From a virus: 34,597 bases of DNA. The DNA is taken from UHGV virus genome UHGV-0102868; one strand, written 5' to 3'. Below the pieces are notes generated by a model, which worked only from the letters and a program-made list of their open reading frames with translations, did no database searches and was not told where the DNA came from. The position numbers and the translations under genes are program-made. This document shows positions 3,819 to 23,236 of the stretch, piece by piece; position 1 is the stretch's first letter, and every line of letters begins with the position of its first letter.

Positions 3819-3819
3819 C

Positions 3820-5026: not shown

Positions 5027-6083
5027 TTATGTGATGGTTTTGCCCAATCCTACGCCATACCTCTGGGCTACCAAATTTATAGTTACCAGAGGGATTGGCT
5101 TTGTAGGCTTGATACTCGTTTGCATAATATTCTATGTCTCTATCTCCCGCACAGAATGTAGGCCCTGAATATTCTCGATGAGCAAGAATATCCTCACTAT
5201 GTTTACCATATTGTTCATAACCAAAGCGATTAGCTACTCTTCCTCGAAATACCCAAAAGTCATTATCTCCAGAGTATCTGACGCTGGCAGATACGCTAGG
5301 GAATCGCGTCGAAAGCCTATTAAAGTCGGGGTGCTGTACTCCATAATCACTATAAATCACATTTCTGGCAAGTTCTTTTCTATTCATTAAACTCTGCCAT
5401 AAAATCCACTCGATTCGAGGTTGAGAATATAGACCAACAGAAATATCACTGAGATCTGTAGGAAATGAACCCCCAGAAAGAATCACTTTTCTGTATTCAT
5501 TGAGGTGCGCCAGATTGTTTATCAATCCCATTGCCAAAGTATATAGTTCGCCGGAATTAAGTTTATCCTCGGTTAACTCATCTCTTAAGTCAATAATTAT
5601 ATCAATATTTGATAAAGGAATTCCTAGATGATTAATGTAATGCGTTATTAATTGTGGGTTAACCAGATCTAACGTGGTTAATCTCAAGCATATTTCATTC
5701 TGCATTAATTCATCAATCGCTCTTTTATAGTTAGATGGGCGAGTTGGTGAACTGACAGGAATAACTCTTATCCCCATATCTCTAACTTGATTAACCGCAT
5801 TTATTATAGGGTAATGATCTTCAGGAGAAATAAAATGCTCTTCAATTAATAATCCATCAATATAAACACCTTGCATATCTGAGCAAGATTTTGAGACTTT
5901 CTTTCCGAACTCTATAAGAGTCTCGTTATAACTCTTTAAGGCAATACCTGAATCAGGGTCAATTGGCACTGGTTCAATTTCGAGTAATGGCAAAATTTTT
6001 GATTTCTTTTCAATGGATAGCTGCGATAAAGCTGATAACTCAGAACGTTTCGCTTTCAGAATAGGAATATATGAAATTGCCAT
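4986..6083 (-). CDS. uncharacterised 365-aa protein (ORF-B), convergent partner of ORF-A
   Basis: Long uninterrupted minus-strand ORF, the only convincing minus-strand gene in the window. AT-rich. Its 3' end overlaps the ORF-A 3' end by 41 bp. No motif I can name with confidence. Confidence 0.7.
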   Translation of the reverse strand: MAISYIPILKAKRSELSALSQLSIEKKSKILPLLEIEPVPIDPDSGIALKSYNETLIEFGKKVSKSCSDMQGVYIDGLLIEEHFISPEDHYPIINAVNQVRDMGIRVIPVSSPTRPSNYKRAIDELMQNEICLRLTTLDLVNPQLITHYINHLGIPLSNIDIIIDLRDELTEDKLNSGELYTLAMGLINNLAHLNEYRKVILSGGSFPTDLSDISVGLYSQPRIEWILWQSLMNRKELARNVIYSDYGVQHPDFNRLSTRFPSVSASVRYSGDNDFWVFRGRVANRFGYEQYGKHSEDILAHREYSGPTFCAGDRDIEYYANEYQAYKANPSGNYKFGSPEVWRRIGQNHHITKVVEQLATLYGL

Positions 6084-6435
6084 GTTAATACCTTATACAG
6101 AATCAATTAACAATTAATGGTTCTTCGGACATTGAAATTTATATCGCAAAAATTGGCAAACTCTCCTCGACTACTCACTTGTGGGTATCCTGGCGTAAAA
6201 GGAATGACTTGGCAATACCCGGTGTGATCATAAGTCATTGAAAATGATCATTTTTATCAGTCTTTCTTCCATGATGAATGCTAATGCCATTTGATTTGTT
6301 GAGGTAAAAACTGTTAAAAATCAAAACGATGTAATTGAAATGAACGTTCGGTAGCATTCACGCTTTAAATGTTTCTTTTGTGCTGATTGGATGAATTTTG
6401 GTCACTTATGATGAGAGATGTTGCAGGAAAAGAAG

Positions 6436-6464
6436 TTGGCATTGATCTATTGGATAGTTAGAAT
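6436..6464 (+). promoter_or_regulatory. candidate sigma70 promoter of the hok mRNA
   Basis: -35 TTGGCA (6436-6441), 17-nt spacer, -10 TAGAAT (6459-6464). The predicted start near 6471 coincides with the 5' element that pairs with the mRNA 3' end. Confidence 0.55.
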
Positions 6465-6639
6465 TGCTGCGGGTGCTTGAGGCTATCTGCCTCAGGCATG
6501 AACACCAAAGGCAGATAGAGAAAAGCCCCAGTTAACATTACGCGTCCTGCAAGACGCTTAACATTAATCTGAGGCTCAATCCATGCTGAACACATGTAGG
6601 TTAGCCTCTTACGTGCCGAAAGGCAAGGAGAAGCAGGCT

Positions 6640-6795
6640 ATGAAGCAGCAAAAGGCGATGTTAATCGCCCTGATCGTCATCTGTTTAACCATCATTGTGA
6701 CGGCACTGGTAACGAGGAAAGACCTCTGCGAGGTACGAATCCGAACCGGCCAGACGGAGGTCGCTGTCTTCACAGCTTACGAACCTGAGGAGTAA
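6640..6795 (+). CDS. hok: Hok/Gef-family type I toxin
   Basis: 51-aa product MKQQKAMLIALIVICLTIIVTALVTRKDLCEVRIRTGQTEVAVFTAYEPEE is a typical Hok/Gef membrane toxin (closest in my memory to HokD/RelF). RBS AAGGAG at 6624-6629. Confidence 0.85.
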   Translation: MKQQKAMLIALIVICLTIIVTALVTRKDLCEVRIRTGQTEVAVFTAYEPEE

Positions 6796-6860
6796 GAGAC
6801 CAGGCGGGGTAAACCCCCGCCACCTCTGATGTGTCAGGCATCCTCAACGCACCCGCACTT

Positions 6861-6884
6861 AACCCGCCTTGGCGGGTTTTTTTG
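6861..6884 (+). terminator. rho-independent terminator at the 3' end of the hok mRNA
   Basis: GC hairpin CCCGC-cttg-GCGGG followed by a T7 run. Confidence 0.6.
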
Positions 6885-7025
6885 TAATTGATAAAAAAAT
6901 TAACCAAAATGGTTTACATAAAATTCCTTTATGGTAAATTGATTCGCATGTAAGGGGGGAGCACACTACCGATCATACCCTCAACGAGCGCGCTCTATTA
7001 CTGACACTAAACTGAGGAATTACCT

Positions 7026-7379
7026 ATGGCACTCACTGAATTCGGTAAGGCCGTGAGAAAAGCGAGAATTGATACAGGTTATACACTTCTTACCATGGCA
7101 AAAGCATTGGGCACCACACCAGCTTTCTTGAGTGGGCTTGAAACTGGAGCAAAAAAGATTCCAGCAAAATGGGTTACGGCAATAAATGATTTACTTGCTG
7201 AGCAAGGGTACAAAATTGAAAACCTGGATTTGTTAGCCAATATTTCAAATGAGTCAATACCTGTTGAAGGTTTACCCTTGCAGCAACAGATGTTGGTTGC
7301 AGGATTTGCTAAATCAGAATTCACACATGAAGAATTGAAAAAGTTCGCTGAGCTTTTAGCGGAAATCAATAAGAAATAA
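7026..7379 (+). CDS. XRE-family helix-turn-helix transcriptional regulator
   Basis: N-terminal HTH-like segment (TGYTLLTMAKALGTTPAFLSGLETG); RBS GAGGA 7 nt upstream; the next gene starts 16 nt after its stop. Confidence 0.75.
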   Translation: MALTEFGKAVRKARIDTGYTLLTMAKALGTTPAFLSGLETGAKKIPAKWVTAINDLLAEQGYKIENLDLLANISNESIPVEGLPLQQQMLVAGFAKSEFTHEELKKFAELLAEINKK

Positions 7380-7395
7380 TTTTGGGGCCAATTTT

Positions 7396-7878
7396 ATGTA
7401 TCAAATGCGAGGGACAAGAGTCCAGCCATTAACCGAAATTGACATCAAAAACAAAGCTATAAATGCCTGTTTTGCTTTGGGATTTACAAGCAAGTATAAA
7501 TACCGTAGGCGTCCGAAGAGATTTGATATTGCTTTAGAAAAGCTGTCAGAGTGGAATATTGTTTTGGAGCCTATTGATGAGGCTGATTGGCTGGGACTTA
7601 CTCTTGGCTTAACCATTGGACATTGTGAGCCAGAGACATTGACAATAAGAGTGCCAAACCATATTTATGAAATGGCTTGTGCAGGAGAACGTAGTGCTTT
7701 ATTTGTTGTTTTTCATGAGTTAGGTCATTTGCTTCTTCAGCATAAACCAGCACTGCATTTTTCAAATACCCCACCGGAGCAAAACGAAGACTCTGAGTGG
7801 CAGGCTGATTTATTTGCAGATGTGATGTTGGAAAAATTAGGATATGAAACAGCACAACTTTGCTTCGATTTTTATTAA
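7396..7878 (+). CDS. ImmA/IrrE-family Zn metallopeptidase (HEXXH)
   Basis: Translation contains FHELGHLLLQH (HEXXH) in a 160-aa protein directly downstream of an XRE HTH gene, the usual ImmR/ImmA-type arrangement. Confidence 0.75.
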   Translation: MYQMRGTRVQPLTEIDIKNKAINACFALGFTSKYKYRRRPKRFDIALEKLSEWNIVLEPIDEADWLGLTLGLTIGHCEPETLTIRVPNHIYEMACAGERSALFVVFHELGHLLLQHKPALHFSNTPPEQNEDSEWQADLFADVMLEKLGYETAQLCFDFY

Positions 7879-8000
7879 AAAGCCCTGCAATAGCAGGGCT
7901 TAGATTCGGAAAGCCTAGGAAACTTTCCTGTGTATGATGGAGATCCCCACCGCTACACTTAGAATTGACAGAAGTGAGTCTAGCGGTTCTCTCAATAAAT

Positions 8001-8028
8001 TGCAACCTGTATGGGGATACAGGTTGCA
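8001..8028 (+). repeat. perfect 12-bp inverted repeat with a 4-nt GGGG loop
   Basis: TGCAACCTGTAT-GGGG-ATACAGGTTGCA read directly; it sits just upstream of the RBS and start of the small Zn-ribbon ORF. Confidence 0.7.
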
Positions 8029-8044
8029 GGGAGATGCTGTTGTT

Positions 8045-8194
8045 ATGGCTATGAAAACTTGTAAGAAATGTGGGAAACCGTGTGAAATTATTTTTCGTTA
8101 CTCTGCCTGTATCAACGGAGTTATGCGGTATGCGAGAAAAGGGCATCCTTTTCCGATTCCTGTCTGCGATTGCTCTGAACTTGGTGTCGCATAA
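8045..8194 (+). CDS. small Cys-rich (zinc-ribbon-like) protein, 49 aa
   Basis: ATG 8045 with RBS GGGAGA (8030-8035); CKKCGKPC ... CDC motifs; followed by a terminator. The ORF-track start at 7934 would read through the inverted repeat. Confidence 0.4.
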   Translation: MAMKTCKKCGKPCEIIFRYSACINGVMRYARKGHPFPIPVCDCSELGVA

Positions 8195-8202
8195 TGATCT
8201 AA

Positions 8203-8226
8203 AACCCGCTTTGGCGGGTTTTTTAC
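8203..8226 (+). terminator. rho-independent terminator closing the accessory island
   Basis: CCCGC-tttg-GCGGG hairpin followed by TTTTTT. Confidence 0.55.
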
Positions 8227-8386
8227 TTTTACAGATCAAGTTTTAGCCGATTCCTCCATTAAACCGACCTTCGTTTGTTGATAAGCGGGTATGCCTGACT
8301 AGAATCGATTCACTTAAGTAGCGCGCAGGGAGAAGAGGGATGGACCCCGAGCAGGGGAGTGCTATTTATCTGGAAGGATTCTGTTG

Positions 8387-8560
8387 ATGAAAATCGAAGA
8401 ATTGCGTGAAATTTTTAGTGAAAATGGCCTCTATGCTGTGCGCGTTGAGAATGGAGACGTTATCTACACAACGTTAATTCCTGATGATCATGTGATTTTA
8501 TCTATCGAGGCATTCATTGAATATCTGGAAAGGCTCGGTTTCAAGGTGGTTCGGGAATGA
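8387..8560 (+). CDS. small hypothetical protein (57 aa), absent from the ORF track
   Basis: ATG 8387 with RBS GGAAGGA 9 nt upstream; 57 sense codons ending TGA 8558-8560. Confidence 0.35.
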   Translation: MKIEELREIFSENGLYAVRVENGDVIYTTLIPDDHVILSIEAFIEYLERLGFKVVRE

Positions 8561-8619
8561 GTTATAATTCGTAAGCCAGCCTGAACAACTGGCAACCTAC
8601 AGCGCCATTGGAGATAACA

Positions 8620-9219
8620 ATGGCGCATATACAACTGGTCAAACAAACCTCTTCCGGATTACTTCTCCCGGCGACGCCGGAGAGTTGCGATTTTCTGCAT
8701 CAAATCAAAATAGGTGAGTGGATACACGCAGACTTTAAGCGTGTGCGTAACTACGCATTCCACAAGCGTTTTTTCAAACTCCTGCAACTGGGTTTCGATT
8801 ACTGGACTCCGGTCGGAGGGGCGATCACGCCTCGCGAACGAAAACTGGTTTCAGGATTCGTTGATTACCTGTGTGAATCAGTAGGCCGGGAACATACGCC
8901 AGCTCTGAGCGAAGCCGCAGAGCAATATCTGAATACAGTTGCGACACGCAGAACCCGGGATACGGCATTGCTAAAGTCGTTTGAGGCTTTCCGCGAGTGG
9001 GTAACCATTCAGGCCGGATTTTACACCGAGCATCTTTATCCTGATGGTAGTCGTGGGCGTCGGGCGAAATCCATCGCGTTTGCGAATATGGACGAAACCG
9101 AGTTTCAGCAGGTTTATAAATCTGTACTGAATGTGCTGTGGAACTGGATCCTGTTCCGTAAATTTTCCTCTCCGGAACAAGTCGAAAATGTGGCCGCGCA
9201 GCTGCTGGAGTTTGCGTAA
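8620..9219 (+). CDS. conserved lambdoid nin-region protein (DUF1367-like, by recollection)
   Basis: ATG 8620 with RBS GGAGAT; its stop overlaps the next start (TAATG). Family assignment is from memory of lambdoid nin regions, not a search. Confidence 0.55.
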   Translation: MAHIQLVKQTSSGLLLPATPESCDFLHQIKIGEWIHADFKRVRNYAFHKRFFKLLQLGFDYWTPVGGAITPRERKLVSGFVDYLCESVGREHTPALSEAAEQYLNTVATRRTRDTALLKSFEAFREWVTIQAGFYTEHLYPDGSRGRRAKSIAFANMDETEFQQVYKSVLNVLWNWILFRKFSSPEQVENVAAQLLEFA

Positions 9220-9509
9220 TGGTGAATTTATGTAAAGCGGCGCGGGGCCAGATGTGCCAGGTCAGAATTCCTGGCTACTGCAATCACAATCCTGAAACGT
9301 CTGTACTGGCGCATTACCGGCTGGCGGGAACGTGCGGAACCGCGATAAAGCCACACGATATGCAGGCGGCGATTGCCTGTAGCTCATGCCACGATTTAAT
9401 CGACGGGAGAGTAAAAACCAGCGATTACACCAAAGAAGAATTACGCCTGATGCATGCAGAAGGTGTTTTTCGCACACAAGAAATCTGGAGAAAGGAAGGT
9501 TATTTATGA
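9219..9509 (+). CDS. conserved lambdoid nin-region protein with Cys/His cluster (DUF1364-like, by recollection)
   Basis: 96 aa with CNHNPE ... CSSCHD motifs; ATGA overlap with the downstream gene. Confidence 0.55.
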   Translation: MVNLCKAARGQMCQVRIPGYCNHNPETSVLAHYRLAGTCGTAIKPHDMQAAIACSSCHDLIDGRVKTSDYTKEELRLMHAEGVFRTQEIWRKEGYL

Positions 9510-10048
9510 TTTACCCAACAAATACAGGAAAAAGCGGGGAACACCTTCGTCTCACCACGCTGGAAAGTGTCTGGATTCAGGGGAAACTGCGTATGTGGGG
9601 GCGCTGGTCGTATATTGGCGGCGGTAAGACGGGGAATATGTTTAACCAGTTGCTGGCATCCAAAAAATTGACGAAAACAGCCATCAATGAAGCCCTGCGC
9701 AGAATGAAAAAAGCGGGAATGGATAAAATTGAGCTGGCGATATATTTTCGTGAGATGATCGAAGGAAAGCAAAAAAGCTGGCTGGCGCATTGTACGGATG
9801 CGGAGGCGTTATGCATTGATCGGGTGATTAGTGAAGTGCTGGCAAAACACCCAGGATTGATTTGTATCCTCCGGCAACGATATGAAGGGAGGGGGATGAC
9901 TAAGCGTAAAATGGCTGAATTGCTGAATGATGCACATCCTGAGTGGTGTTTTAGCACATGCGAAAAGCGAATTGCTAATTGGTTAGCCGTTGCTGAATAT
10001 GCCCTGTATATTCCCATGCGAGAATCATTTGCTCAAAAAATAGCTTGA
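9506..10048 (+). CDS. putative late-gene antiterminator (Q-like)
   Basis: Strong RBS AAGGAAGG (9492-9499); last gene before a terminator, the tRNAs and the lysis cassette; an LRMWGRW segment is reminiscent of Q-family proteins. Assignment is mainly positional. Confidence 0.45.
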   Translation: MIYPTNTGKSGEHLRLTTLESVWIQGKLRMWGRWSYIGGGKTGNMFNQLLASKKLTKTAINEALRRMKKAGMDKIELAIYFREMIEGKQKSWLAHCTDAEALCIDRVISEVLAKHPGLICILRQRYEGRGMTKRKMAELLNDAHPEWCFSTCEKRIANWLAVAEYALYIPMRESFAQKIA

Positions 10049-10131
10049 TTTTTTACGCATAAATTGCTTCAATTCCGGTATGCTTCGCAAAGCTGTATCG
10101 CGAGGCGAACCAAGCGCATGAACTTTACCAG

Positions 10132-10161
10132 AACCCGCCATTGAGCGGGTTTTGTTGTTTC
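10132..10161 (+). terminator. intrinsic terminator downstream of the Q-like gene (tR'-like candidate)
   Basis: CCCGC-cattga-GCGGG hairpin followed by TTTTGTTGTTT. Confidence 0.5.
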
Positions 10162-10374
10162 TGGGGGGGCATTTCGTTAAATGAAGCTGTGTTGTGCGCA
10201 ATTAGCTAATAACACGAATCGTGAATGTATATAATGCGCTTGTTCCTTCGATGGTGTATTCGAATAACGGATTACTGAATACAGCTATCCCATTAAGGGA
10301 ACACCGCCATCTGCTCATCGGGAAGAGCCGACCATCATTTAAGTGGTAGTTCGATACCTCGGTGGCGGTTCTGT

Positions 10375-10450
<76 letters not shown>

Positions 10451-10453
10451 TAT

Positions 10454-10528
<75 letters not shown>

Positions 10529-10803
10529 GCATTTGAAATAAGCCTTATTGTATTGCAGCACTGGCGTATTTTTATTACGTGGGAGCAGGTTGTTTCGAAA
10601 AAGTATTCTGTTCTCTGGCTATGATTTGAGGCCAGGTGTAGCCTCAGTGCTGATTTTTTTACGGCAGCAGAATGGTGCATTATCGGTGGAGATTTTGTAT
10701 TTCCTGGCAGGGCCGGTGATGTGCCATCCCGATGTTGTAAACATCGCTAAAAATGACATTGAGATTAATCATATACTAAGCAAAACCTGGAAATACATCC
10801 TTT

Positions 10804-10830
10804 ACCGCCTCCACCGGGCGGTTTTTTTTA
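10804..10830 (+). terminator. intrinsic terminator downstream of the tRNA pair
   Basis: ACCGCC-tccacc-GGGCGGT hairpin followed by a T8 run. Confidence 0.5.
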
Positions 10831-11215
10831 TTCTGAACCCTAAAAAAAGAAACACGGACACTGATAATGCCCGTGTGGCAATGCCATGTAAGTTAGCGAT
10901 GAATATGGCGCAAAAAAAAGCGCGGCCGTCGGATTAACGCCGCGGGACAAAGTCCATGAAGACTCATAAGTATTGGCCCCCTTCTGGGGACATGTTCATA
11001 CTACTAAGCTTCAGAAGTGGTTTAAATCATCAAATTAACCTTAATTTTCGATAAGTCTTATTTCATTTCTTTGCGCCACATCTGGCGCGCATCAAATAAC
11101 GCCACGCAAAGGGCATCTGCGGATGCCGGTGCTTTTGACGGGGTGTTTTTTACGGGCCGCTGGTGGCCATTTTTTGTTTCCATTACACAGCGCCCGCATC
11201 TGCGAGGTGGGGGTT

Positions 11216-11431
11216 ATGAAATCCATGGATAAGTTAACAACGGGTGTCGCCTATGGCACCTCCGCAGGCAGTGCTGGCTACTGGTTTTTACAGTTGCTCG
11301 ATAGAGTAACTCCGTCACAGTGGGCTGCAATCGGTGTGCTGGGTAGTCTGGTTTTTGGCCTGCTGACGTACCTGACAAACCTTTATTTCAAGATTAAAGA
11401 AGATAAGCGCAAGGCTGCGAGAGGTGAATAA
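11216..11431 (+). CDS. S: phage-21-type pinholin (S21-like), dual-start MKSM motif
   Basis: 71-aa product [26 protein letters not shown]... with two transmembrane segments and a charged C-terminus; start chosen at ATG 11216 rather than the ORF-track start at 11123. Confidence 0.85.
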
Positions 11432-11928
11432 TGCCTCCATCATTACGAAAAGCCGTTGCTGCTGCTATTGGTGGCGGAGCAATTGCTATAGCATCAGTGT
11501 TAATCACTGGCCCAAGTGGTAACGATGGTCTGGAAGGTGTCAGCTACATACCATACAAAGATATTGTTGGTGTATGGACTGTATGTCACGGGCATACAGG
11601 AAAAGACATCATGCTCGGTAAAACGTATACCGAAGCAGAGTGCAAAGCCCTCCTGAATAAAGACCTTGCCACTGTCGCCAGACAAATTAACCCGTATATC
11701 GAAGTCGATATACCGGAAACAACGCGCGGCGCTCTTTACTCATTCGTTTACAACGTGGGTGCTGGCAATTTCAGAACATCGACGCTTCTTCGCAAAATAA
11801 ACCAGGGCGATATCAAAGGCGCATGTGATCAGCTACGTCGCTGGACATATGCTGGCGGTAAGCAATGGAAAGGTCTCATGACTCGTCGTGAGATTGAGCG
11901 TGAAATCTGTTTGTGGGGTCAGCAATGA
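11431..11928 (+). CDS. R: SAR endolysin (lysozyme with N-terminal signal-anchor-release domain)
   Basis: Gly/Ala-rich N-terminal hydrophobic segment ([20 protein letters not shown]) followed by a lysozyme-like domain; TAATG overlap with the holin stop. Confidence 0.85.
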
Positions 11929-12389
11929 ACAGAGTAACCGCGATTATCTCCGCTCTGGTTATCTGCATCATCGTCTGCCTGTCATGGGCTGTTAATCATT
12001 ACCGTGATAACGCCATTACCTACAAAGCCCAGCGCGACAAAAATGCCAGAGAACTGAAGCTGGCGAACTCGACAATTACTGACATGCAGATGCGTCAGCG
12101 TGATGTTGCTGCGCTCGATGCAAAATACACGAAGGAGTTAGCTGATGCGAAAGCTGAAAATGATGCTCTGCGTGATGATGTTGCCGCTGGTCGTCGTCGG
12201 TTGCACATCAAAGCAGTCTGTCAGTCAGTGCGTGAAGCCACCACCGCCTCCGGCGTGGATAATGCAGCCTCCCCCCGACTGGCAGACACCGCTGAACGGG
12301 ATTATTTCACCCTCCGGGAACGACTGGTAATGATGCAGGCCCAACTTGAAGGTGCTCAGCAATACATAACCGAACAGTGTTTAAAGTAA
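11925..12389 (+). CDS. Rz: i-spanin Rz
   Basis: N-terminal transmembrane segment then coiled-coil; ATGA overlap with the endolysin stop; position in the lysis cassette. Confidence 0.8.
12145..12330 (+). CDS. Rz1: o-spanin Rz1 (lipoprotein nested in the +1 frame of Rz)
   Basis: Signal peptide with lipobox VVGC, then a proline-rich stretch [16 protein letters not shown]; wholly embedded in Rz. Confidence 0.8.
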
Positions 12390-12526
12390 AATCTTAACTA
12401 CAATATGATTCATTTTGATGATTGTTTCATAAGGAACAGTGAAGTAAGATCTAAGAGGAGTTAAATTTTATACAGTATAATCATAATATTGCAGCAAGGT
12501 GGTTATAATTGAAAGAATATTTAGAT

Positions 12527-13984
12527 ATGAATACATCTCATGTAAGAGTTGTTACTCATATGTGTGGGTTCCTGGTTTGGCTCTATAGTCTTTCAATGTT
12601 GCCACCAATGGTTGTAGCATTGTTTTATAAAGAAAAAAGCCTGTTCGTTTTCTTTATAACTTTCGTTATATTTTTTTGCATTGGTGGCGGAGCGTGGTAT
12701 ACAACTAAGAAATCTGGCATTCAATTACGTACCCGTGATGGGTTTATTATAATTGTAATGTTTTGGATTTTGTTTTCTGTTATTAGTGCATTCCCTTTAT
12801 GGATTGACTCAGAACTTAATTTAACGTTCATTGATGCTCTGTTTGAAGGGGTTTCTGGAATAACAACAACAGGAGCAACTGTAATTGATGATGTTAGTTC
12901 ATTACCTCGGGCATATTTGTACTATCGGTCACAGTTAAATTTTATTGGTGGTTTAGGAGTTATTGTTCTGGCGGTTGCTGTATTGCCATTATTGGGTATT
13001 GGTGGTGCAAAGCTTTATCAGTCAGAAATGCCGGGGCCATTTAAGGATGACAAACTCACTCCCCGCCTGGCCGATACGTCACGGACACTGTGGATAACTT
13101 ATTCTTTATTAGGTATTGCTTGTATTGTCTGTTATAGACTTGCAGGAATGCCTTTGTTTGATGCTATTTGTCACGGGATTTCCACAGTTTCGCTTGGTGG
13201 TTTCTCAACTCATAGCGAGAGTATCGGATATTTTAATAACTATTTGGTTGAGCTGGTGGCTGGTTCTTTTTCCCTGCTATCGGCTTTCAACTTCACTCTT
13301 TGGTATATTGTTATTAGCAGGAAAACGATAAAACCTTTAATCAGAGATATTGAACTTCGTTTCTTTCTGTTAATAGCCTTAGGGGTGATCATTGTTACCT
13401 CTTTCCAGGTCTGGCATATAGGTATGTATGACTTGCATGGAAGTTTTATTCATTCGTTTTTTCTTGCCAGCTCCATGCTCACTGATAATGGTTTAGCTAC
13501 GCAGGATTATGCAAACTGGCCCACGCACACGATAGTGTTTTTGCTGTCGTCAAGTTTCTTTGGGGGATGTATAGGTTCAACTTGTGGTGGAATTAAGTCA
13601 CTTCGATTTCTTATACTTTTCAAACAAAGCAAACACGAGATAAATCAGCTTTCTCATCCCAGAGCGTTGTTGAGTGTAAATGTAGGAGGGAAGATAGTTA
13701 CAGATCGTGTAATGAGGTCTGTATGGAGTTTCTTTTTTCTTTATACTCTCTTCACGGTGTTTTTTATACTGGTGTTAAATGGTATGGGATATGATTTTCT
13801 TACATCATTTGCAACAGTGGCTGCATGTATTAATAATATGGGATTAGGTTTTGGGGCTACTGCATCGTCATTCGGAGTGCTTAATGACATTGCAAAATAT
13901 TTAATGTGCATAGCTATGATTCTTGGTCGCCTTGAAATTTATCCTGTTATTATATTGTTTTCAGGTTTTTTTTGGCGCTCCTAA
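12527..13984 (+). CDS. trkG: TrkH/TrkG-family potassium uptake transporter (moron)
   Basis: Polytopic membrane protein with repeated selectivity-filter-like glycine motifs (SGITTTGATV, IGGLGVIVL, STCGGIKSL), as in TrkH/TrkG; AT-rich. Alternative TTG start at 12509 behind SD AAGGTGG. Confidence 0.85.
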   Translation: MNTSHVRVVTHMCGFLVWLYSLSMLPPMVVALFYKEKSLFVFFITFVIFFCIGGGAWYTTKKSGIQLRTRDGFIIIVMFWILFSVISAFPLWIDSELNLTFIDALFEGVSGITTTGATVIDDVSSLPRAYLYYRSQLNFIGGLGVIVLAVAVLPLLGIGGAKLYQSEMPGPFKDDKLTPRLADTSRTLWITYSLLGIACIVCYRLAGMPLFDAICHGISTVSLGGFSTHSESIGYFNNYLVELVAGSFSLLSAFNFTLWYIVISRKTIKPLIRDIELRFFLLIALGVIIVTSFQVWHIGMYDLHGSFIHSFFLASSMLTDNGLATQDYANWPTHTIVFLLSSSFFGGCIGSTCGGIKSLRFLILFKQSKHEINQLSHPRALLSVNVGGKIVTDRVMRSVWSFFFLYTLFTVFFILVLNGMGYDFLTSFATVAACINNMGLGFGATASSFGVLNDIAKYLMCIAMILGRLEIYPVIILFSGFFWRS

Positions 13985-14121
13985 TATATGGCTGATTTAT
14001 AATTGTGAGTTTAATATTATATTGACTCACTCATTGATCCAATACCTAACTTTACCAGCAACACCTCCGCCCCCAGTAGCACTGGCTGCTGGGGTGCGTT
14101 TTATTCATAAAGCAAGGCTGT

Positions 14122-14910
14122 ATGAGCGAGAAATTAAAGATAGTCTATCGCCCATTACAAGAATTGTCACCGTATGCGCACAACGCCAGGACGCACAGTA
14201 CTGAGCAGGTGGCACAACTGGTAGAAAGTATTAAGCAATTCGGCTGGACTAATCCGGTGCTGATTGACGAAAAGGGCGAAATTATTGCGGGTCACGGTCG
14301 TGTTATGGCGGCTGAAATGCTCAAAATGGATTCTGTTCCGGTCATTGTTCTGTCTGGCCTGACGGATGATCAGAAAAAGGCGTACCGCCTGGCAGATAAT
14401 CGCCTACCGATGAATGCTGGCTGGGATGAAGATCTGTTGCGGATGGAGCTGTCGGACCTAATCAATGCTGATTTTGATGTCTCCCTGACAGGCTTCGGCC
14501 CGACAGAAATTGATGAACTGTTGACGGATGTTTTGCCCGGTACAGGAAATAAGAAGGAGCCGTATACGACGAAAATTGATACGCCTGTTTATGAGCCGTC
14601 GGGCGGTAAACCGGATATCAGTGAACTGTACGACGATACGAAAACTCAGGAGCTGATCAGCCGGATACGTTCGGCGTCCCTTGATCCTGATATTGAGAAA
14701 TTCCTCCTGTGTGCGGCAGAACGTCACACGGTGTTTAATTTCAGCAGAATTGCGGACTATTACGCTCATGCCCCCGCTGAAATTCAGTGCCTTTTCGAGG
14801 AGTCGGCGCTGGTGATCATTGATTATCAGCAGGCTATTGAAAATGGATTTGTCCGAATGACGCAGCGCATGGTGGCGATCATGCATAGCGGGGAGGAGGA
14901 ATATGCGTGA
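14122..14910 (+). CDS. ParB-like nuclease domain protein
   Basis: N-terminal ParB/sulfiredoxin-type signature (IIAGHGRVMAA, DNRLPMNAGWD); 120-aa C-terminal extension of unknown function; its stop overlaps the next start by 8 nt. Confidence 0.75.
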   Translation: MSEKLKIVYRPLQELSPYAHNARTHSTEQVAQLVESIKQFGWTNPVLIDEKGEIIAGHGRVMAAEMLKMDSVPVIVLSGLTDDQKKAYRLADNRLPMNAGWDEDLLRMELSDLINADFDVSLTGFGPTEIDELLTDVLPGTGNKKEPYTTKIDTPVYEPSGGKPDISELYDDTKTQELISRIRSASLDPDIEKFLLCAAERHTVFNFSRIADYYAHAPAEIQCLFEESALVIIDYQQAIENGFVRMTQRMVAIMHSGEEEYA

Positions 14911-15835
14911 TGATTTTTGCGCCTTTATTCTGACTCACGGGCGACCGGACAAAGTTCTGACTTACCGGACGTTGCGTCGTGCTGGCTATACCGGGAAAAT
15001 TTTTATCGTTGTTGATGATGAAGATAAGACACGGCATCAGTACATGGCTGAATTTGGTGAACAGGTGCTGGTATTTTCCAAAGCAGATATTGCCAGTCGT
15101 TTTGACGAAGCCGATAATTTTGGTGACCGCCGCTCAATTTTTTACGCCCGTAATGCCTGTTTCGACCTGGCAAAACTGGTCGGGTGTAAATACTTCATTC
15201 AGCTCGATGATGATTATCACGAGTTCCAGTTTCGGGTGGATCGCAACTATGACCAGGCCTATTTCCCGATAAGGAAACTGGATGCGATCCTTTCTGAAAT
15301 GCTGGCGTATTACGAATCAATACCCGCGCTTTCCATCGCTATGTCGCAGGGCGGGGATTTTCTTGGTGACAATGGCGGCCATGCTTCGTGGGTGAAACGC
15401 AAGGCAATGAACAGCTTTATCTGTTCGGTTGATCGACCGTTCTCATTCATGGGGCGCATTAACGAGGATGTGAATACGTACACGAATCTCGGTCGCCGTG
15501 GTGAATTGTTTATGACGATCGGTGCTGTCCAGTTAGGGCAGAAACAGACGCAGAAAAACAGCGGCGGAATGACCGAGCTGTATCTGGATTCCGGGACCTA
15601 CGTTAAAAGTTTTTATTCCGTCATGTATGCGCCGTCGTGCGTAAAAATCTCACTGATGGGCGCCAGCCATAAACGCATTCACCATCAGGTCACCTGGAAC
15701 AACGCTGCAGTAAAAATCCTTCACGAAAAATACAGGAAGAAGACACCCTGCATATTAATGGGGGTGACAAATGATTCCGTATTCGAAAGTCGAGTCTCTG
15801 GCAGCGTGCCGGATGACTGCACAACAAATCGCTGA
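14903..15835 (+). CDS. GT-A-fold glycosyltransferase-like protein (DxD motif)
   Basis: Strong RBS GGAGGAGGA; spacing of beta1 (CAFILTHGRPD), beta2 (KIFIVVDDEDKT) and DxD (YFIQLDDDYH) matches GT-A nucleotide-sugar transferases by eye; translationally coupled to the ParB-like gene. Confidence 0.6.
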   Translation: MRDDFCAFILTHGRPDKVLTYRTLRRAGYTGKIFIVVDDEDKTRHQYMAEFGEQVLVFSKADIASRFDEADNFGDRRSIFYARNACFDLAKLVGCKYFIQLDDDYHEFQFRVDRNYDQAYFPIRKLDAILSEMLAYYESIPALSIAMSQGGDFLGDNGGHASWVKRKAMNSFICSVDRPFSFMGRINEDVNTYTNLGRRGELFMTIGAVQLGQKQTQKNSGGMTELYLDSGTYVKSFYSVMYAPSCVKISLMGASHKRIHHQVTWNNAAVKILHEKYRKKTPCILMGVTNDSVFESRVSGSVPDDCTTNR

Positions 15836-16022
15836 CGTTCTGGATGTTGATCTGAACCGACTGAAAGAAAATCGGGAAGCAATGACAAATTTTTACGCGT
15901 CCATCCGTAAGGGCAGAGCGAAAGGTGAAGCCGAGCTACGGGCGGCATTGTTTAAGCTTGCCAGAAAAGGGGATGCCTTTGCCCTGCGCGAACTACTCAG
16001 GGTGGATAAAAATCAGGACTAA
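15771..16022 (+). CDS. small HTH-like DNA-binding protein (possible terminase small-subunit accessory domain)
   Basis: RBS GGGGTGA; HTH-like segment MTAQQIADVLDVDL; overlaps the 3' end of the GT-like gene in another frame. Start uncertain (15771 or 15813). Confidence 0.4.
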   Translation: MIPYSKVESLAACRMTAQQIADVLDVDLNRLKENREAMTNFYASIRKGRAKGEAELRAALFKLARKGDAFALRELLRVDKNQD

Positions 16023-16025
16023 CTG

Positions 16026-17120
16026 ATGAGCAGACCGGACTGGGGGGCGTTGCAGCAGGAGTATATTGCTGAATACACCCGCTCCGGTATATCTCCGGTG
16101 GCATGGTGTGAAGCAAGGGGACTGAATTACGCAACAGCCCGTCGTTACATCAAAAAACCTCCGAAAAATGCGCAGACAGAAATGCGCAAAACTGCGCAAA
16201 AAAGTGCGCAGAAAAAATCTGCGCAGACTGCACAAAAGCGGAACGGAAAATCTCAGGAAAAAAAGCCAGTATCCGATGCGTACCTGAATGAGGGCGATGC
16301 GGAAGAAATTTCGTTCTGTCCCGATGAATTCGGCATTTCTGACCAGCAGGCTAAGTTTGCGATGCTTGTTGCTCAGGGTAAAAAGCCGACAGAGGCGTAC
16401 CGACTAGCCGGTTATGAGGGGCAAGGTGCGACAGCTAACAGCAACGCCAGTCGTATGCTTAGAAATGCCAGGGTTTTTCGCGCTATCAGCTACTTCCGCA
16501 ATCAGTACCAGAAACGCTATACCGCAGACCTGGATTTACTAGTGAGTCAGTTGATGGCTATTGTCCTGGCCGACCCCAATCAGCTTGCACAATTTCGCCG
16601 TGTTAACTGCCGTTATTGCTGGGGCGAGAATCATCTCTACCAGTGGCGCGATATAGCAGAATTCGACAAGGCAGCGGCGCAGGCTTCCAGAGATGGCAAA
16701 CCCGAACCGGAATATGGAGGCCTCGGCTTTGTTGATAACGCCATACCCAATCCGGACTGCCCGAAGTGCTGCGGTGAGGGAACGGGACAGCTTTATATGG
16801 CTGATACCACTCTGCTTGATGGGGATGCGCGGCAATTATATGCAGGGGCAAAATTCGGAAAATTCGGCGTTGAGATCCTGCTGGAGGATAAGGCTGCCGC
16901 CCGGCGTGAATTGTTGCGTTTGTTTTCTGCTGGCGGGGCTTTATGTGCAGATAAACGGCTACAGGAACTGGAAATTGAACGGCGCAGAATGGAAAACCAG
17001 AAGCTGCGCAAAGAGATCGAAACGGTGGAAGATAATGAACATCCCCAGCCTGTGGCGATCAATATTAATGTGGTTGATGCCAGAGTAAGGAGTGATGAAG
17101 ATGATCTCTCCGACGCTTAA
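16026..17120 (+). CDS. terminase small subunit
   Basis: Segment FGISDQQAKFAMLVAQGKKPTEAYRLAGYEG...SRMLRN resembles the HTH of small terminase subunits; directly upstream of the large subunit. Confidence 0.7.
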   Translation: MSRPDWGALQQEYIAEYTRSGISPVAWCEARGLNYATARRYIKKPPKNAQTEMRKTAQKSAQKKSAQTAQKRNGKSQEKKPVSDAYLNEGDAEEISFCPDEFGISDQQAKFAMLVAQGKKPTEAYRLAGYEGQGATANSNASRMLRNARVFRAISYFRNQYQKRYTADLDLLVSQLMAIVLADPNQLAQFRRVNCRYCWGENHLYQWRDIAEFDKAAAQASRDGKPEPEYGGLGFVDNAIPNPDCPKCCGEGTGQLYMADTTLLDGDARQLYAGAKFGKFGVEILLEDKAAARRELLRLFSAGGALCADKRLQELEIERRRMENQKLRKEIETVEDNEHPQPVAININVVDARVRSDEDDLSDA

Positions 17121-18402
17121 TGTGCCTCAGGCGCGATTTCTTTCAATGCCCCATAAATTTAAAGCCTATATTGCTGGTTTTGGCTCGGGCAAAACATGGG
17201 TTGGGTGTGGCGGCATATGCAAGGGGATTTGGGAGCATCCAGGTATAAATCAGGGATATTTTGCGCCAACGTATCCCCAAATTCGCGATATTTTTTACCC
17301 TACAGTGGAAGAAGTTGCTGCTGACTGGGGATTGAACGTAAAAATTAATGAGGGAAATAAAGAGGTTCACTTTTATTACGGACGCCAGTATCGGGGAACC
17401 ACTATCTGCAGATCGATGGAGAAGCCACAAACGATCGTCGGTTTCAAAATTGGTAATGCGTTGGTGGATGAACTGGACATTTTGCCGAAGGAAAAAGCCA
17501 GAACGGCGTGGCGCAAGATAATTGCACGTATGCGTTATAAGATTGATGGACTTCGCAACGGTATTGACGTTACAACCACGCCGGAAGGATTCAAATTTGT
17601 CTACGAGCAGTTTGTTAAAGCCGTGCGTGAAAAAACAGAGCTGGCCTCACTGTATGGTCTGGTGCAGGCATCTACTTTCGATAATGAAAAGAACCTGCCA
17701 GCAGATTACATTCCTTCGCTTCTTGAATCATACCCTCCAGAGCTGATTAAAGCCTATCTGCGAGGACAGTTTACTAACCTGACAAGTGGTACTGTTTACC
17801 ATCAGTTTGACCGGAAACTGAATAATTGCGAAGAAGTGGAGCAGCCAGGGGAGCCGATTTATATTGGGATGGATTTTAACGTTGGAAAGATGGCGGGAAT
17901 CGTCCATGTGCTGCGTTTGGGGCTTCCATGTGCGGTAACTGAAATCATCAATGCCTACGATACGCCGGATATGATCCGCATCATTAAAGAACGCTTCTGG
18001 CTGTATGATGGGAATGATTACCGGAAAGTGAGGGAAATTTATATTTATCCAGATGCTTCCGGGGATTCCAGAAAATCAAGTAACGCAAGTACGACGGATA
18101 TAGCCCAGCTTAAGCAGGCTGGTTTTAACGTTGTGGTGAACAGCTCGAACCCGCCAGTAAAAGATCGCGTTAACTCAATGAATGCAATGTTCTGCAATGC
18201 CAATGGTGAGCGTCGCTATAAAGTTAATGTGAAGCGTTGCCCGTTATATGCCGAATCTCTGGAGCAACAGGTCTGGGATGAGAAGGGGGAGCCTGATAAA
18301 AAATCTGGCAATGATCACCCGAATGATGCCGGAGGTTATTTCATCGTTAAGCAATTCCCTATTGTCAAACCGACCGGAAGAGTCACATCACTTCGGATTT
18401 AA
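17101..18402 (+). CDS. terminase large subunit
   Basis: Walker A GFGSGKT near the N-terminus; about 430 aa; SD AAGGAG 8 nt before ATG 17101. Alternative starts at 17092 and 17095. Confidence 0.85.
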   Translation: MISPTLNVPQARFLSMPHKFKAYIAGFGSGKTWVGCGGICKGIWEHPGINQGYFAPTYPQIRDIFYPTVEEVAADWGLNVKINEGNKEVHFYYGRQYRGTTICRSMEKPQTIVGFKIGNALVDELDILPKEKARTAWRKIIARMRYKIDGLRNGIDVTTTPEGFKFVYEQFVKAVREKTELASLYGLVQASTFDNEKNLPADYIPSLLESYPPELIKAYLRGQFTNLTSGTVYHQFDRKLNNCEEVEQPGEPIYIGMDFNVGKMAGIVHVLRLGLPCAVTEIINAYDTPDMIRIIKERFWLYDGNDYRKVREIYIYPDASGDSRKSSNASTTDIAQLKQAGFNVVVNSSNPPVKDRVNSMNAMFCNANGERRYKVNVKRCPLYAESLEQQVWDEKGEPDKKSGNDHPNDAGGYFIVKQFPIVKPTGRVTSLRI

Positions 18403-18404
18403 TT

Positions 18405-19811
18405 ATGGCTGATATATCAACACCCAACCTCGACTATAACGATATGCTGGAGGCGTGGGATATTAACGACGCACTGATGGGCGGTACGCTTGAAATGCGC
18501 AGGCAGGGGGAAAATTATCTCCCAAAATGGCCTAACGAAGATGAAGACGCTTATAAAAAACGCCTGTCTGTGGCTACGCTACTTCCTGTGTATGAAGAAA
18601 GCATCAAGCAAAATATTGGGCGCATATTTGCAGAGCCGACAGTATTGAGTGAGGAAACGCCGGCAAAAATCAGGGAATATACAGAAAATATCGACATGGA
18701 GGGGAGCCGACTGGATGTGTGGGCGCAGCAATTTTTCAGCCTCGCATTTCAGTATGGTGTGGCACATGCGCTGGTGGACTATCCACGAACGGATATGAAA
18801 GAGATTCGTACAAAAGCCGATGAAAACGCGACCGGTGGTCGTCCGTACGTTACGATGCTGAATCCACGCCAGGTTATTGGATGGAAATCGAAAGTTGAAA
18901 AAGGGAAAGTTGTTCTCACTGATTTGCGTATAAAAGAGGTCATCATTATTGATGGTGATGATTTCGGGCAGAAGAAGGTGGAGCAGATCCGCCATATTAT
19001 GCCCCGTCGAGTTGAAATTTATCGACGTAGCGAAGGCACTAATGGCGAATCTGTCTGGACGCTTCATGAGTCATGGAATACCAGCCGTGATGATATTCCT
19101 CTGGTAACACTGTACACGAAGAAAACAGGATTTATGCGTGGTACACCGCCATTGCTTAATCTTGGCTTGCTGAATATCAAGCACTGGCAAAGCCAGAGCG
19201 AGCAGGACAATATTCTTCATGTTACCCGCGTTCCATTGCTGGTGGCCTACGGGCTGGACAGGAATGAAGAACTGACGGTTGGTGCATCCACCGCTACGAT
19301 TTTTGAGGACAGAACAAAAAATGGCCTCGAATATGTTGAACATAGTGGCGCAGCGATAGAATCTGGCGAAACATCACTTGAGAAGCTGGAAAATCAGATG
19401 CGTCATGCCGGCGCTAAACTTCTGCGTGCTGAAAATACATCCACCAAATCTGTTGATCAGACTAATGAAGAGCGAATGCAGGAAAACTCGCCGCTTTATA
19501 CAATGGCGAACTCCCTCGAAGATGCCCTCGATAATATTCTCCAGATAATGGCGGAATGGATCGGAGAGAGTTGCGGTGGCAATGTGGATGTGCGCACTGA
19601 ACTGGATGTATCTGCCCAGGTGTTTGACTCATCCTCCGCGCTGGCTGTTCAGTCATTGCGTCAGGGCGGTGATATACGTCAGATTGATGCGGTTCGGGTG
19701 TTGCAGGCGTTGAAATTTATCGATCAGGATTCCCGTCCAGAGGAAGTGATCGATGAATTAAAAAATCAGAGTGTAATGCTGATGGAAATCAATGATGCAA
19801 ACCGTGAATGA
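18405..19811 (+). CDS. portal protein
   Basis: 468-aa ORF immediately after the large terminase; size and position typical of portals. Assignment is positional. Confidence 0.7.
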   Translation: MADISTPNLDYNDMLEAWDINDALMGGTLEMRRQGENYLPKWPNEDEDAYKKRLSVATLLPVYEESIKQNIGRIFAEPTVLSEETPAKIREYTENIDMEGSRLDVWAQQFFSLAFQYGVAHALVDYPRTDMKEIRTKADENATGGRPYVTMLNPRQVIGWKSKVEKGKVVLTDLRIKEVIIIDGDDFGQKKVEQIRHIMPRRVEIYRRSEGTNGESVWTLHESWNTSRDDIPLVTLYTKKTGFMRGTPPLLNLGLLNIKHWQSQSEQDNILHVTRVPLLVAYGLDRNEELTVGASTATIFEDRTKNGLEYVEHSGAAIESGETSLEKLENQMRHAGAKLLRAENTSTKSVDQTNEERMQENSPLYTMANSLEDALDNILQIMAEWIGESCGGNVDVRTELDVSAQVFDSSSALAVQSLRQGGDIRQIDAVRVLQALKFIDQDSRPEEVIDELKNQSVMLMEINDANRE

Positions 19812-20907
19812 ACGGCTGCGTGATGAATCAATTGCTCATGCAGTCTGGATATCCCGCTATAGCACTGGCGTGGCTGCCAGAATGGTGAAAATACTGAATG
19901 ACAGCGATGCGGAACTTACTGCTCGCCTGCTGATAGCACTGGACAGCCTCGATCCAGGTAATTTTACCGTTAAGCGCCTGGAGTCACTTCTGGCGAGCGT
20001 CAGAAAGGTTAACCGCACTGCTATTAACAGCATGTTTACCAGTCTCTCCGGAGAGCTGAACGAGCTGGCAATTTATGAGGCTGGTTATCAGTTAAGTCTG
20101 TTTGATTCTATGCTACCTGATTTTGTTGCTGATGTTCACCCTCTGGTTGGTATCTCTCCTGATGCACTTTATGCCGCTGCAATGGCGCGACCATTCCAGG
20201 GACGACTGCTCAGTGAGTGGGCCTCAGATCTTGAGGCGGATCGGCTCAGACGCATAACAAATACAGTGCGTCAGGGTTTTTTGCTGGGGGATACCAATGA
20301 GCAGATCGCAAGAAAAATTCGGGGACATGTCAGTAAGGGATTTCAGGATGGTGCATTGCAGATGAGCCGGGCTAATGCGGCCAGCATTGCAAAAACAGCG
20401 GTTGGACATCTTGCTGCTACTGCCCGTGAGAGTTTTGCCAGCGCGAATAATGATTTGATTAAGGGTAAGCAATGGTTATCAACGCTTGATAATCGTACTA
20501 CGCCACAATGTCGAATCAGGGATCGCCTCAAATATACGCTGAATAATAAACCTGTAGGTCACAGCGTGCCTTATTTGCAGGGGCCGGGAAAAATTCATTT
20601 CTGCTGCCGCTCAACGGAAACGTTCATTCTGAAATCAGCGAAGGAACTGGGTATTGATGTTCGCGATATTTCCCCGGCTGAGCGGGCCAGCATGGATGGC
20701 GTGGTGGCCGGAGATACAACCTACAGGGAATGGTTTTTGCGTCAGCCTTACACCAGACAAAAACAGATTGTGGGGGAAACCCGAGCAAAGCTGATTCGGG
20801 ATGGTGGTATGTCGCCAGATGAATTTTACACCGATAAAGGCGAATGGCTGACGCTGAAGCAGCTCCGTGAGCGTGATGCACAGGTATTCAGAAAAGCAGG
20901 GATTTAA
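19792..20907 (+). CDS. head morphogenesis protein (Mu gpF / SPP1 gp7-like, putative)
   Basis: About 370 aa directly after the portal and followed by a strong terminator; assigned by position and size. Confidence 0.65.
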   Translation: MMQTVNERLRDESIAHAVWISRYSTGVAARMVKILNDSDAELTARLLIALDSLDPGNFTVKRLESLLASVRKVNRTAINSMFTSLSGELNELAIYEAGYQLSLFDSMLPDFVADVHPLVGISPDALYAAAMARPFQGRLLSEWASDLEADRLRRITNTVRQGFLLGDTNEQIARKIRGHVSKGFQDGALQMSRANAASIAKTAVGHLAATARESFASANNDLIKGKQWLSTLDNRTTPQCRIRDRLKYTLNNKPVGHSVPYLQGPGKIHFCCRSTETFILKSAKELGIDVRDISPAERASMDGVVAGDTTYREWFLRQPYTRQKQIVGETRAKLIRDGGMSPDEFYTDKGEWLTLKQLRERDAQVFRKAGI

Positions 20908-20926
20908 ATAAATTATTTATTACAAC

Positions 20927-20952
20927 AGGCTACCTTCGGGTGGCCTTTTTTA
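20927..20952 (+). terminator. rho-independent terminator
   Basis: 8-bp stem AGGCTACC / GGTGGCCT with TTCG loop, followed by TTTTTT. Confidence 0.7.
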
Positions 20953-21011
20953 TTGCTGCGATCCGGATGGTGAGCAGCGTAACTGTCGGAAGACTTAAAC
21001 CAGGTACTAAT

Positions 21012-21776
21012 ATGAAACTGAAAACGGTCGAGATTAACGGAAAACAATACGCAGAAATTGATACTGCTGGCCTGCCAGTTTATGTGCACGACGATGGTAA
21101 AGAAATTGGCTTCGATGCACCGCTGGCGACAAAAAAAATTACAGAGCTTAATGGCGAGGCAAAAAATCATCGCCTGGCTAAAGAAGCTGCAGAGGAAAAA
21201 CTGGCTAAGTTTGCCGCTATCGAAGACCCGAAGAAGGCGATCGAGGCACTGGAAATGCTGTCAAAAATCGACCAGAAAAAGCTGCTCGATGCGGGACAGG
21301 TTGACCAGGTTAAGGCAGAAATTACGAAAAATTTTCAGCAGCAATTAGATGAAGAAAAGCAACGCTCTCAGATGCTGGAGAAGCAGCTTTACGATTCTAT
21401 GATTGGCGGTAGTTTTGCGGGTTCAAAATATATTGCCGATAAAATTGCGATCCCGGCAGATTTATTACAAGCCCGCTTCGGGCAGGCATTCAAAGTGGAA
21501 GAAGGGAGGATCGTTGCTTATGACGCTTCCGGCAACAAAATTTATTCCCGCGCGAAGCCTGGCGAACTGGCGCAGTTTGATGAGGCGCTGGAGTTCCTTG
21601 TCGAAAATTACCCTCAGAAAGACTACATCCTGAAAGCCAGTGGCAACAATGGCGGCGGCTCCCGTCCGACACAGCATGATATTGGTCAGAAAACGATGAA
21701 ACGCTCTGCTTTTGATGCACTGGATGTTGCAGGTAAGCAAAACGCATTGAAAGACGGTATCACAATCGTTGATTAA
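21012..21776 (+). CDS. scaffolding protein (putative)
   Basis: Charged, coiled-coil-rich 254-aa protein directly upstream of the major capsid gene. Start at ATG 21012 because the ORF-track start at 20940 lies inside the terminator. Confidence 0.6.
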   Translation: MKLKTVEINGKQYAEIDTAGLPVYVHDDGKEIGFDAPLATKKITELNGEAKNHRLAKEAAEEKLAKFAAIEDPKKAIEALEMLSKIDQKKLLDAGQVDQVKAEITKNFQQQLDEEKQRSQMLEKQLYDSMIGGSFAGSKYIADKIAIPADLLQARFGQAFKVEEGRIVAYDASGNKIYSRAKPGELAQFDEALEFLVENYPQKDYILKASGNNGGGSRPTQHDIGQKTMKRSAFDALDVAGKQNALKDGITIVD

Positions 21777-23233: not shown

Positions 23234-23236
23234 CAC

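Follow-up and report, generated by a model that had tools for sequence, protein, structure and literature searches.

The trkG gene of a Rac-family prophage: an accessory Trk transporter subunit, probably carried as cargo between the lysis and packaging genes

Positions 12,390 to 14,121 of the viral genome UHGV-0102868, analysed here as a single stretch of 34,597 nucleotides (the window), lie between the spanin genes of a lambdoid lysis cassette and a gene for a ParB-like protein, and hold the potassium transporter gene trkG. The gene is the lone long plus-strand open reading frame (ORF) at this locus (Table 1), and RefSeq labels its product 'Trk system potassium transporter TrkG'. A first-pass annotation had placed a TrkG/TrkH-family transporter at 12400-13990, a bracket that is correct for the gene and its upstream spacer, and had given its length as 486-491 residues. 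The upper figure was borne out and the lower was not: translation from the TTG at 12509 yields 491 residues, and translation from the ATG at 12527, in the same frame, yields the 485-residue form used by RefSeq and UniProt.

The product matched the Pfam TrkH family (PF02386) with an E value of 5.7e-144 and 480.7 bits (cutoff 27) over residues 40-483, and the NCBIfam subfamily model TIGR00933 ('TrkH family') with 413.5 bits (cutoff 331.15). It was aligned over its full length to the solved TrkH of Vibrio parahaemolyticus (3pjz/4j9u; E ~4e-121), with residues 7-485 placed on residues 4-485 of the 4j9u chain, and the N-terminal D0-helix segment was thus covered. Four pore-loop glycines, G116 (TTTGAT), G224 (SLGGFST), G322 (DNGLAT) and G439 (NNMGLG) in the numbering of the 485-residue form, match those of TrkH and are unchanged in all eight TrkG-clade sequences compared. 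The glycine-rich gating loop of repeat 3 (FFGGCIGSTCGGIK in the window) pairs with FIGGCAGSTGGGMK of TrkH in the 4j9u alignment; its GGCxGSTCGGIK motif is unchanged across the clade, as is D327, a residue implicated in Na+-dependent activation that is present in the window protein. The product therefore has the D0 helices, four M1-P-M2 repeats, pore glycines and gating loop of E. coli TrkH (b3849) and V. parahaemolyticus TrkH (3pjz, 4j9u), as expected from its first description as a TrkH-type membrane protein with repeated pore-loop glycine motifs.

Alignment to the two E. coli K-12 proteins, which had been proposed as a check, found similarity to both and distinguished between them. The window protein is identical to TrkG of K-12 MG1655 (b1363, UniProt P23849) at 482 of 485 positions, without gaps, whereas its identity to the core paralogue TrkH is only 41%. 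It also scored 452.8 bits against the NCBIfam TrkH equivalog model NF008020, under the cutoff of 866. The score and the low identity together indicate a paralogue, and assignment of the gene as a TrkH orthologue was rejected on these grounds. An Rfam search gave no match inside or beside trkG.

The gene has the same neighbours as trkG of the cryptic Rac prophage of K-12, where the order rzpR (a pseudogene)/rzoR - trkG - ynaK is that of the window. The K-12 gene shares the low guanine-plus-cytosine (GC) content, and the 137-nt spacer between the Rz stop codon and the trkG ATG is base-for-base identical in the window, in K-12 and in E. coli FDAARGOS_1268; the 137-nt downstream spacer has two differences between the window and K-12. 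The suggestion that the window holds the same gene as K-12 Rac was therefore upheld by both sequence identity and gene order.

K-12 Rac aligned to the window in four collinear blocks of 89-99% identity. It keeps window 1030-2563 (ydaU'-ydaV-ydaW') and is without 2564-11944, a 9.4-kb region that holds the accessory region, the Q-like gene, two tRNAs, the holin and endolysin genes and the 5' end of Rz. It then keeps a 2.4-kb island at 99.2% identity (11945-14375; Rz', Rz1, trkG and the 5' third of the ParB-like gene), and is without 14376-25932, in which 11.6 kb encode the rest of the ParB-like protein, a 'TET-associated glycosyltransferase' (TAGT), the terminase subunits, the portal, and head and tail-tube proteins. 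Rz is consequently reduced in K-12 to the pseudogene rzpR, with homology from window 11945 onward, and K-12 YnaK (ynaK, 264 bp) corresponds to the first ~87 residues of the ParB-like protein, the homology ending at 14375. The genes of both regions deleted in K-12 are present and open in the window, as full-length ORFs with the expected Pfam families. Pfam thresholds were passed by the holin, lysozyme, Rz, Rz1 and ParB-like proteins (Table 1), which supports the earlier placement of trkG between Rz/Rz1 and the ParB-like gene. RefSeq relatives begin Rz at the equivalent of window 11925, and the tRNA pair is also annotated in related prophages (loci L001 and L003).

Table 1. Features at and around trkG in the window
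Feature	Coordinates	Strand	Basis or remark
Q-like late antiterminator (DUF1133/Phage_antitermQ)	9506..10048	+	PF06576 E=5.5e-104; PF06530 E=2.2e-06
tRNA-Thr(TGT) and tRNA-Gly(TCC), between Q and lysis cassette	10375..10528	+	ARAGORN; Rfam RF00005
Holin, P21 S type, essD homologue	11216..11431	+	PF04971 E=4.8e-35
Endolysin, phage lysozyme, rrrD homologue	11431..11928	+	PF00959 E=2.2e-45
Rz i-spanin, full length	11913..12389	+	PF03245 E=3.2e-53
Rz1 o-spanin lipoprotein, rzoR homologue, other frame within Rz	12145..12330	+	PF06085 E=2e-19
AT-rich spacer, trkG promoter region	12390..12508	+	Identical to K-12
trkG, Trk-system K+ transporter subunit	12509..13984	+	491 aa from TTG 12509
GC-rich hairpin with UUUUAUU, putative intrinsic terminator	14068..14105	+	Terminator scan, RNA fold
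ParB/Srx N-terminal-domain (ParB_N) protein, intact 262 aa	14122..14910	+	PF02195 E=1e-06

The best genomic match was E. coli FDAARGOS_1268, which aligned to window 8597-26574 at 98.7% over the Q, tRNA, lysis, trkG, ParB-like, TAGT, terminase, head and tail genes. This strain carries a full-length prophage at ttcA with intR, xisR, recET, kilR and sieB, and the best-matching genomes have a Rac-type prophage integrated at ttcA. FDAARGOS_1268, S1-INA-02-A and the PHASTER-predicted 'vB_EcoS-683R6', which are examples of full-length Rac-type prophages integrated at ttcA, all have trkG annotated at this position. On the strength of these alignments, the window is assigned to a Rac-family prophage.

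Although incomplete in K-12, Rac occurs in intact form elsewhere in the species (PMC6379469, citing Lawrence et al. 2001). The first-pass annotation described the window as an apparently intact relative. This description stands for the stretch from the replication module to inside gpJ, where the genes are full-length. As the integrase/repressor and tail-fibre ends of the prophage lie outside the window, 'intact' holds only for the part contained in it. The ParB-like gene is intact in the window, whereas RefSeq gives it as a pseudogene without its C-terminus in the two best matches (L001 22123-22380; L003 26070-26327), even though both are collinear with the window at the DNA level; Rac copies that look intact are thus set apart by small lesions. 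The accessory region at 2828-8596 and an insert at 26575-27368 are not in FDAARGOS_1268, and no complete E. coli genome covers at least 80% of either window 1-24000 or window 2800-8700; the structure of the accessory region is mosaic. Ten 'phage' records hold trkG; all are PHASTER predictions from clinical genomes, some including host ttcA, and as predictions rather than isolated virions they are no proof of a viable trkG-carrying phage.

The trkG unit differs from its surroundings in composition, in agreement with the AT-rich setting claimed for it earlier. The GC content of the gene is 0.381 (0.325 at third codon positions), against 0.48 in both flanks, and that of the upstream spacer (12390-12526) is 25.5%. 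In K-12, genomic SELEX (systematic evolution of ligands by exponential enrichment) with RpoD holoenzyme located at trkG one of the very few constitutive RpoD promoters of the K-12 prophages, and its authors held that trkG entered Rac together with this promoter (PMC5811629). A trkG promoter-luciferase fusion is active in K-12, where trkG and trkH mRNA reach similar levels and trkG mRNA is higher in delta-hns and delta-hns delta-stpA strains (PMC9898762). Because K-12 is without Q and everything between ydaW and Rz, its trkG expression does not come from the late promoter; the window prophage, with identical upstream DNA, should express the gene autonomously in the same way. Candidate hexamers in the spacer region are TTTAAA-18-TATGAT (12380-12409) and a perfect TATAAT at 12476-12481 that lacks a good -35 element.

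At the other end of the gene, a hairpin at 14068-14098 begins 84 nt past the trkG stop codon, and its T-tract ends 17 nt before the start of the ParB-like gene. The terminator scan gave a stem of 10 bp with 7 GC pairs, and the folding energy was -25.2 kcal/mol (z=-4.26), with none of 200 shuffles as stable. The hairpin is kept in K-12 with one change at the base of the stem, and is probably an intrinsic terminator that closes the trkG unit. A distinct composition, an expected promoter of its own and a putative terminator fit the definition of a moron, and the interpretation of trkG as cargo is supported. The lysogenic-conversion function proposed in the first-pass annotation likewise agrees with the K+ uptake, constitutive promoter and partial H-NS repression reported for K-12 (PMC9898762, PMC5811629), given the identical upstream DNA. 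Taken together, it is very probable that the window gene is trkG, an accessory paralogue of the Trk ion-conducting subunit, carried as a moron among the late genes of a Rac-family lambdoid prophage.

The slot between lysis and packaging genes is occupied by other cargo in related phages; in lambda, the cargo gene of this slot is bor, which encodes a serum-resistance lipoprotein. In Escherichia phage Rac-SA53, the heat-labile enterotoxin IIa (LT-IIa) genes eltIIaA/B lie between the lysis genes and the small terminase gene, terS (L015 5687-6827), so that there, as in the window, a host-acting non-phage gene precedes terS. The cargo of the window is an ion transporter, unlike the Rac-SA53 toxin and lambda bor; the lysis cassette of Rac-SA53 is also different from that of the window, and the similarity in terS is only partial. 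Rac-SA53 additionally holds a pertussis-like toxin pair between Q and the holin gene, in the position of the window tRNAs. The presence of the LT-IIa genes in the same slot makes the lysis-to-packaging junction a cargo site in this phage group.

Transport, promoter activity and H-NS control are taken from the literature on K-12, whose TrkG is 99.4% identical to the window protein. K-12 TrkG mediates K+ uptake that requires Na+, and also takes up Na+ (Tanudjaja et al., PMC9898762). It needs TrkA and complements the loss of TrkH, and D327, in the third pore region, is important for its Na+ dependence; TrkH, by comparison, is encoded by a core gene of 53% GC, is Na+-independent and is not regulated by H-NS (PMC9898762). 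Based on these data and on the TrkH structures, the four M1-P-M2 repeats of the window protein would lie in the membrane with the pore-loop glycines forming the K+ filter, and TrkG would pair with the cytoplasmic RCK gating ring TrkA, which is supplied by a host gene outside the window. K+ uptake through TrkG would be Na+-dependent, with D327 important and Na+ also admitted. In the lysogen, a sigma-70 promoter within the AT-rich spacer would drive trkG, with expression dampened by H-NS without being silenced and the transcript probably ending at the hairpin. We infer that the host would benefit by gaining a second, Na+-activated Trk channel as a backup for TrkH.

Both the start codon and the allele of the window gene bear on this model. 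The TTG at 12509 has a Shine-Dalgarno sequence (AAGGTGG, 12496-12502) 6 nt before it, and none was found upstream of the annotated ATG at 12527. The Escherichia fergusonii homologue has the same TTG, preceded by GGAGG, and in the Pectobacterium and Enterobacter homologues there is no internal ATG, and the start is a TTG or GTG at the equivalent position, giving 491 residues. The upstream TTG is thus probably the true start, and the 485-residue RefSeq/UniProt model may be six residues short. The window allele (N330/S341/Y458) is identical to RefSeq WP_001097894.1, which is found in the related prophage loci L001 and L003. It differs from the K-12 allele (S330/L341/C458) by the substitutions S330N, L341S and C458Y, with codon 330 near window 13514. 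N330 and Y458 also occur in outgroup relatives, so the K-12 states are probably derived. Although the window allele is likely to be functionally equivalent to K-12 TrkG, S330 is among the residues that contact D327 in the K-12 protein (PMC9898762), and the natural N330 allele may differ in Na+ dependence from the K-12 laboratory allele that underlies all of the functional data.

Several observations weigh against a cargo gene with the properties described above. The position of S330N beside D327 makes it an assumption that Na+ dependence is the same as in the K-12 protein. A sigma-70 consensus scan was not above shuffled sequences (9 sites against 11.3 expected) and gave no strong hexamer pair in the spacer, and promoter placement consequently rests on the K-12 literature; the U-tract of the hairpin (UUUUAUU) is short. 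A query joining the 3' end of Rz to the 5' end of the ParB-like gene found no trkG-less empty site at a coverage of at least 80% in 5,426 complete E. coli genomes, and every phage-collection record with the ParB-TAGT-terS module is one of the ten that carry trkG. These two results indicate an insertion that is old and fixed in the late-gene module, and mean that the insertion event and its boundaries are not reconstructible. In K-12, no condition was found under which delta-trkG altered growth, and it was suggested that H-NS repression limits unwanted entry of Na+ (PMC9898762).

Some of these points would be expected if trkG were a neutral hitch-hiker, acquired once by the ancestor of the late module and kept by linkage and H-NS silencing. 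The gene has no known growth phenotype on deletion, is repressed by H-NS (PMC9898762) and, lacking an empty site, behaves as a fixed part of the module; a query with trkG alone was covered to at least 80% in only 1,539 of the 5,426 complete genomes (28%), nearly always at an identity of at least 99%. However, the ORF is intact at that identity in 1,523 records, the gene complements the loss of TrkH in K-12 (PMC9898762), and trkG with both of its spacers has been kept between the two large K-12 deletions and in an independent plasmid remnant. It is also among the few Rac genes that are conserved across strains (PMC5700373). A 4.6-kb probe from the holin gene to the glycosyltransferase gene was covered to at least 80% in 624 genomes, and ~40% of trkG-positive genomes therefore keep both neighbours. 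An intact ORF in ~1,500 genomes and survival between large deletions argue for some selection, and neutral carriage is doubtful.

Fifteen plasmids of E. coli, Klebsiella, Enterobacter and Citrobacter, of which 12 are conjugative, carry trkG at 99.9% identity; among them are IncA plasmids of Klebsiella quasipneumoniae (L013 8399-10458) and Citrobacter freundii (L014 8399-10458). The plasmid gene lies within a decayed lambdoid remnant (int-xis-...-Rz-trkG-tfa) adjoining IS26, IS5 and Tn3 elements. trkG has thus been kept through two independent prophage decays, that of K-12 Rac and that of the IncA-plasmid remnant.

The same decays bear on whether TrkG is chiefly of use to the phage. Its gene is located within the late operon, directly downstream of the holin, endolysin and Rz/Rz1 genes and upstream of terS, and the terminator scan found no terminator-like site between the Rz stop and the trkG start. 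By analogy with lambdoid late-operon organisation, Q-modified polymerase should read through into trkG during lytic growth, in addition to any transcription from its own promoter. TrkG expressed late in this way might restore K+ or alter the membrane potential, for instance to offset ion leakage or to tune holin triggering and the timing of lysis, and its association with the same packaging module in every phage-collection record having either is in keeping with such a role. In K-12, however, Q and the late promoter region are gone, as are the holin and endolysin genes, yet trkG is still present and expressed (PMC9898762, PMC5811629), and the gene persists in plasmid remnants that are non-functional. 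Its retention in both argues for selection in the non-induced state, and a mainly phage-serving TrkG is unlikely. There is a similarly small chance of a dual role, in which expression in the lysogen is combined with Q-dependent late co-transcription and Na+/K+ flux shifts membrane energisation, holin timing or burst size.

A role for TrkG in superinfection exclusion or anti-phage defence, for example by altering the ion fluxes for phage DNA injection, was also considered. Prophage cargo near lysis cassettes often consists of defence genes, and defence-like genes (a PD-Lambda-2_C-like gene at 4986-6083 and hok/sok) lie elsewhere in this prophage. TrkG itself matched no PADLOC model, however, and the candidate was rejected on that basis. 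TrkG is a canonical TrkH-family transporter with K+ uptake demonstrated in K-12 (PMC9898762), its relatives of 70-79% identity lie in chromosomal, non-phage settings with no phage or defence genes called nearby, and the known Rac exclusion gene is sieB, located elsewhere. No link between TrkG and exclusion was found in the literature. The 'superinfection-related' function raised in the first-pass annotation is accordingly unsupported, and a defensive TrkG is highly improbable.

The defence-like genes belong to a low-GC accessory block at 4448-7878 that is not in the closest full-length Rac and is probably an anti-phage defence and addiction island. It encodes, on the minus strand, a 'Beta protein' (4986-6083; PF14350) that matches PADLOC PD-Lambda-2_C (E=1.5e-41), with an adjoining ORF that matches PADLOC 'cll'; a sok antitoxin RNA (6471-6645; Rfam RF01794, 118 bits); and a helix-turn-helix and Peptidase_M78 (capH/capP-like) pair (7026-7878). 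Downstream of trkG, at 14122-15835, the ParB-like gene is overlapped by the TAGT gene (PF20691, E=5.8e-36), with terS a short way further on. A PADLOC model for type II methyltransferases is also matched, over its first third, by the N-terminus of the ParB-like protein, and the ParB-like and TAGT genes may form a DNA-modification pair. A second moron of the window is an Ail/Lom-family gene for an outer-membrane beta-barrel (ORF 26773-27330), in 34%-GC DNA between the tail and tape-measure genes; the segment that holds it (26575-27368) found no counterpart in either of the loci compared, K-12 Rac and FDAARGOS_1268.

The origin of the gene was sought among its relatives. TrkG-like proteins of 61-79% identity are common across the Enterobacterales, with examples in E. 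fergusonii, Citrobacter, Pectobacterium, Pantoea, Enterobacter, Buttiauxella, Serratia and Xenorhabdus. The E. fergusonii gene adjoins porin genes, the Pectobacterium gene sits after ychF, and the Enterobacter gene lies between a radical-SAM gene and a multicopper oxidase gene, near parC. The GC content of the Enterobacter gene (56.7%) equals that of its flanks, and that of the Pectobacterium and Serratia genes is below at least one flank. A phage origin for the whole TrkG clade was rejected, as E. fergusonii, Pectobacterium and Enterobacter carry their relatives of 70-79% identity on the chromosome, and only the Serratia copy is inside a P4-like island. From these non-phage contexts it follows that TrkG is a mobile accessory TrkH paralogue of the Enterobacterales that was captured by the Rac ancestor, and not a phage invention.

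Since 1991, the trkG gene of Rac has served as a textbook case of prophage-gene domestication. The trkG of Rac-family prophages is already annotated and published, and the main finding confirms that earlier observation and adds nothing new to it; the TTG start and the N330 allele are minor new points. The value of the window is that it provides a clean example of K-12 Rac before its two large deletions. It places trkG in a cargo slot shared with the LT-IIa enterotoxin genes of Rac-SA53, and is otherwise chiefly confirmatory. The RefSeq/UniProt start of trkG is probably misannotated, with the TTG 18 nt upstream giving 491 residues, and common wild alleles of trkG depart from the K-12 reference at a position in contact with the Na+-sensing D327. 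Beyond E. coli, IncA plasmids of Klebsiella, Citrobacter and Enterobacter have acquired Rz-trkG remnants.

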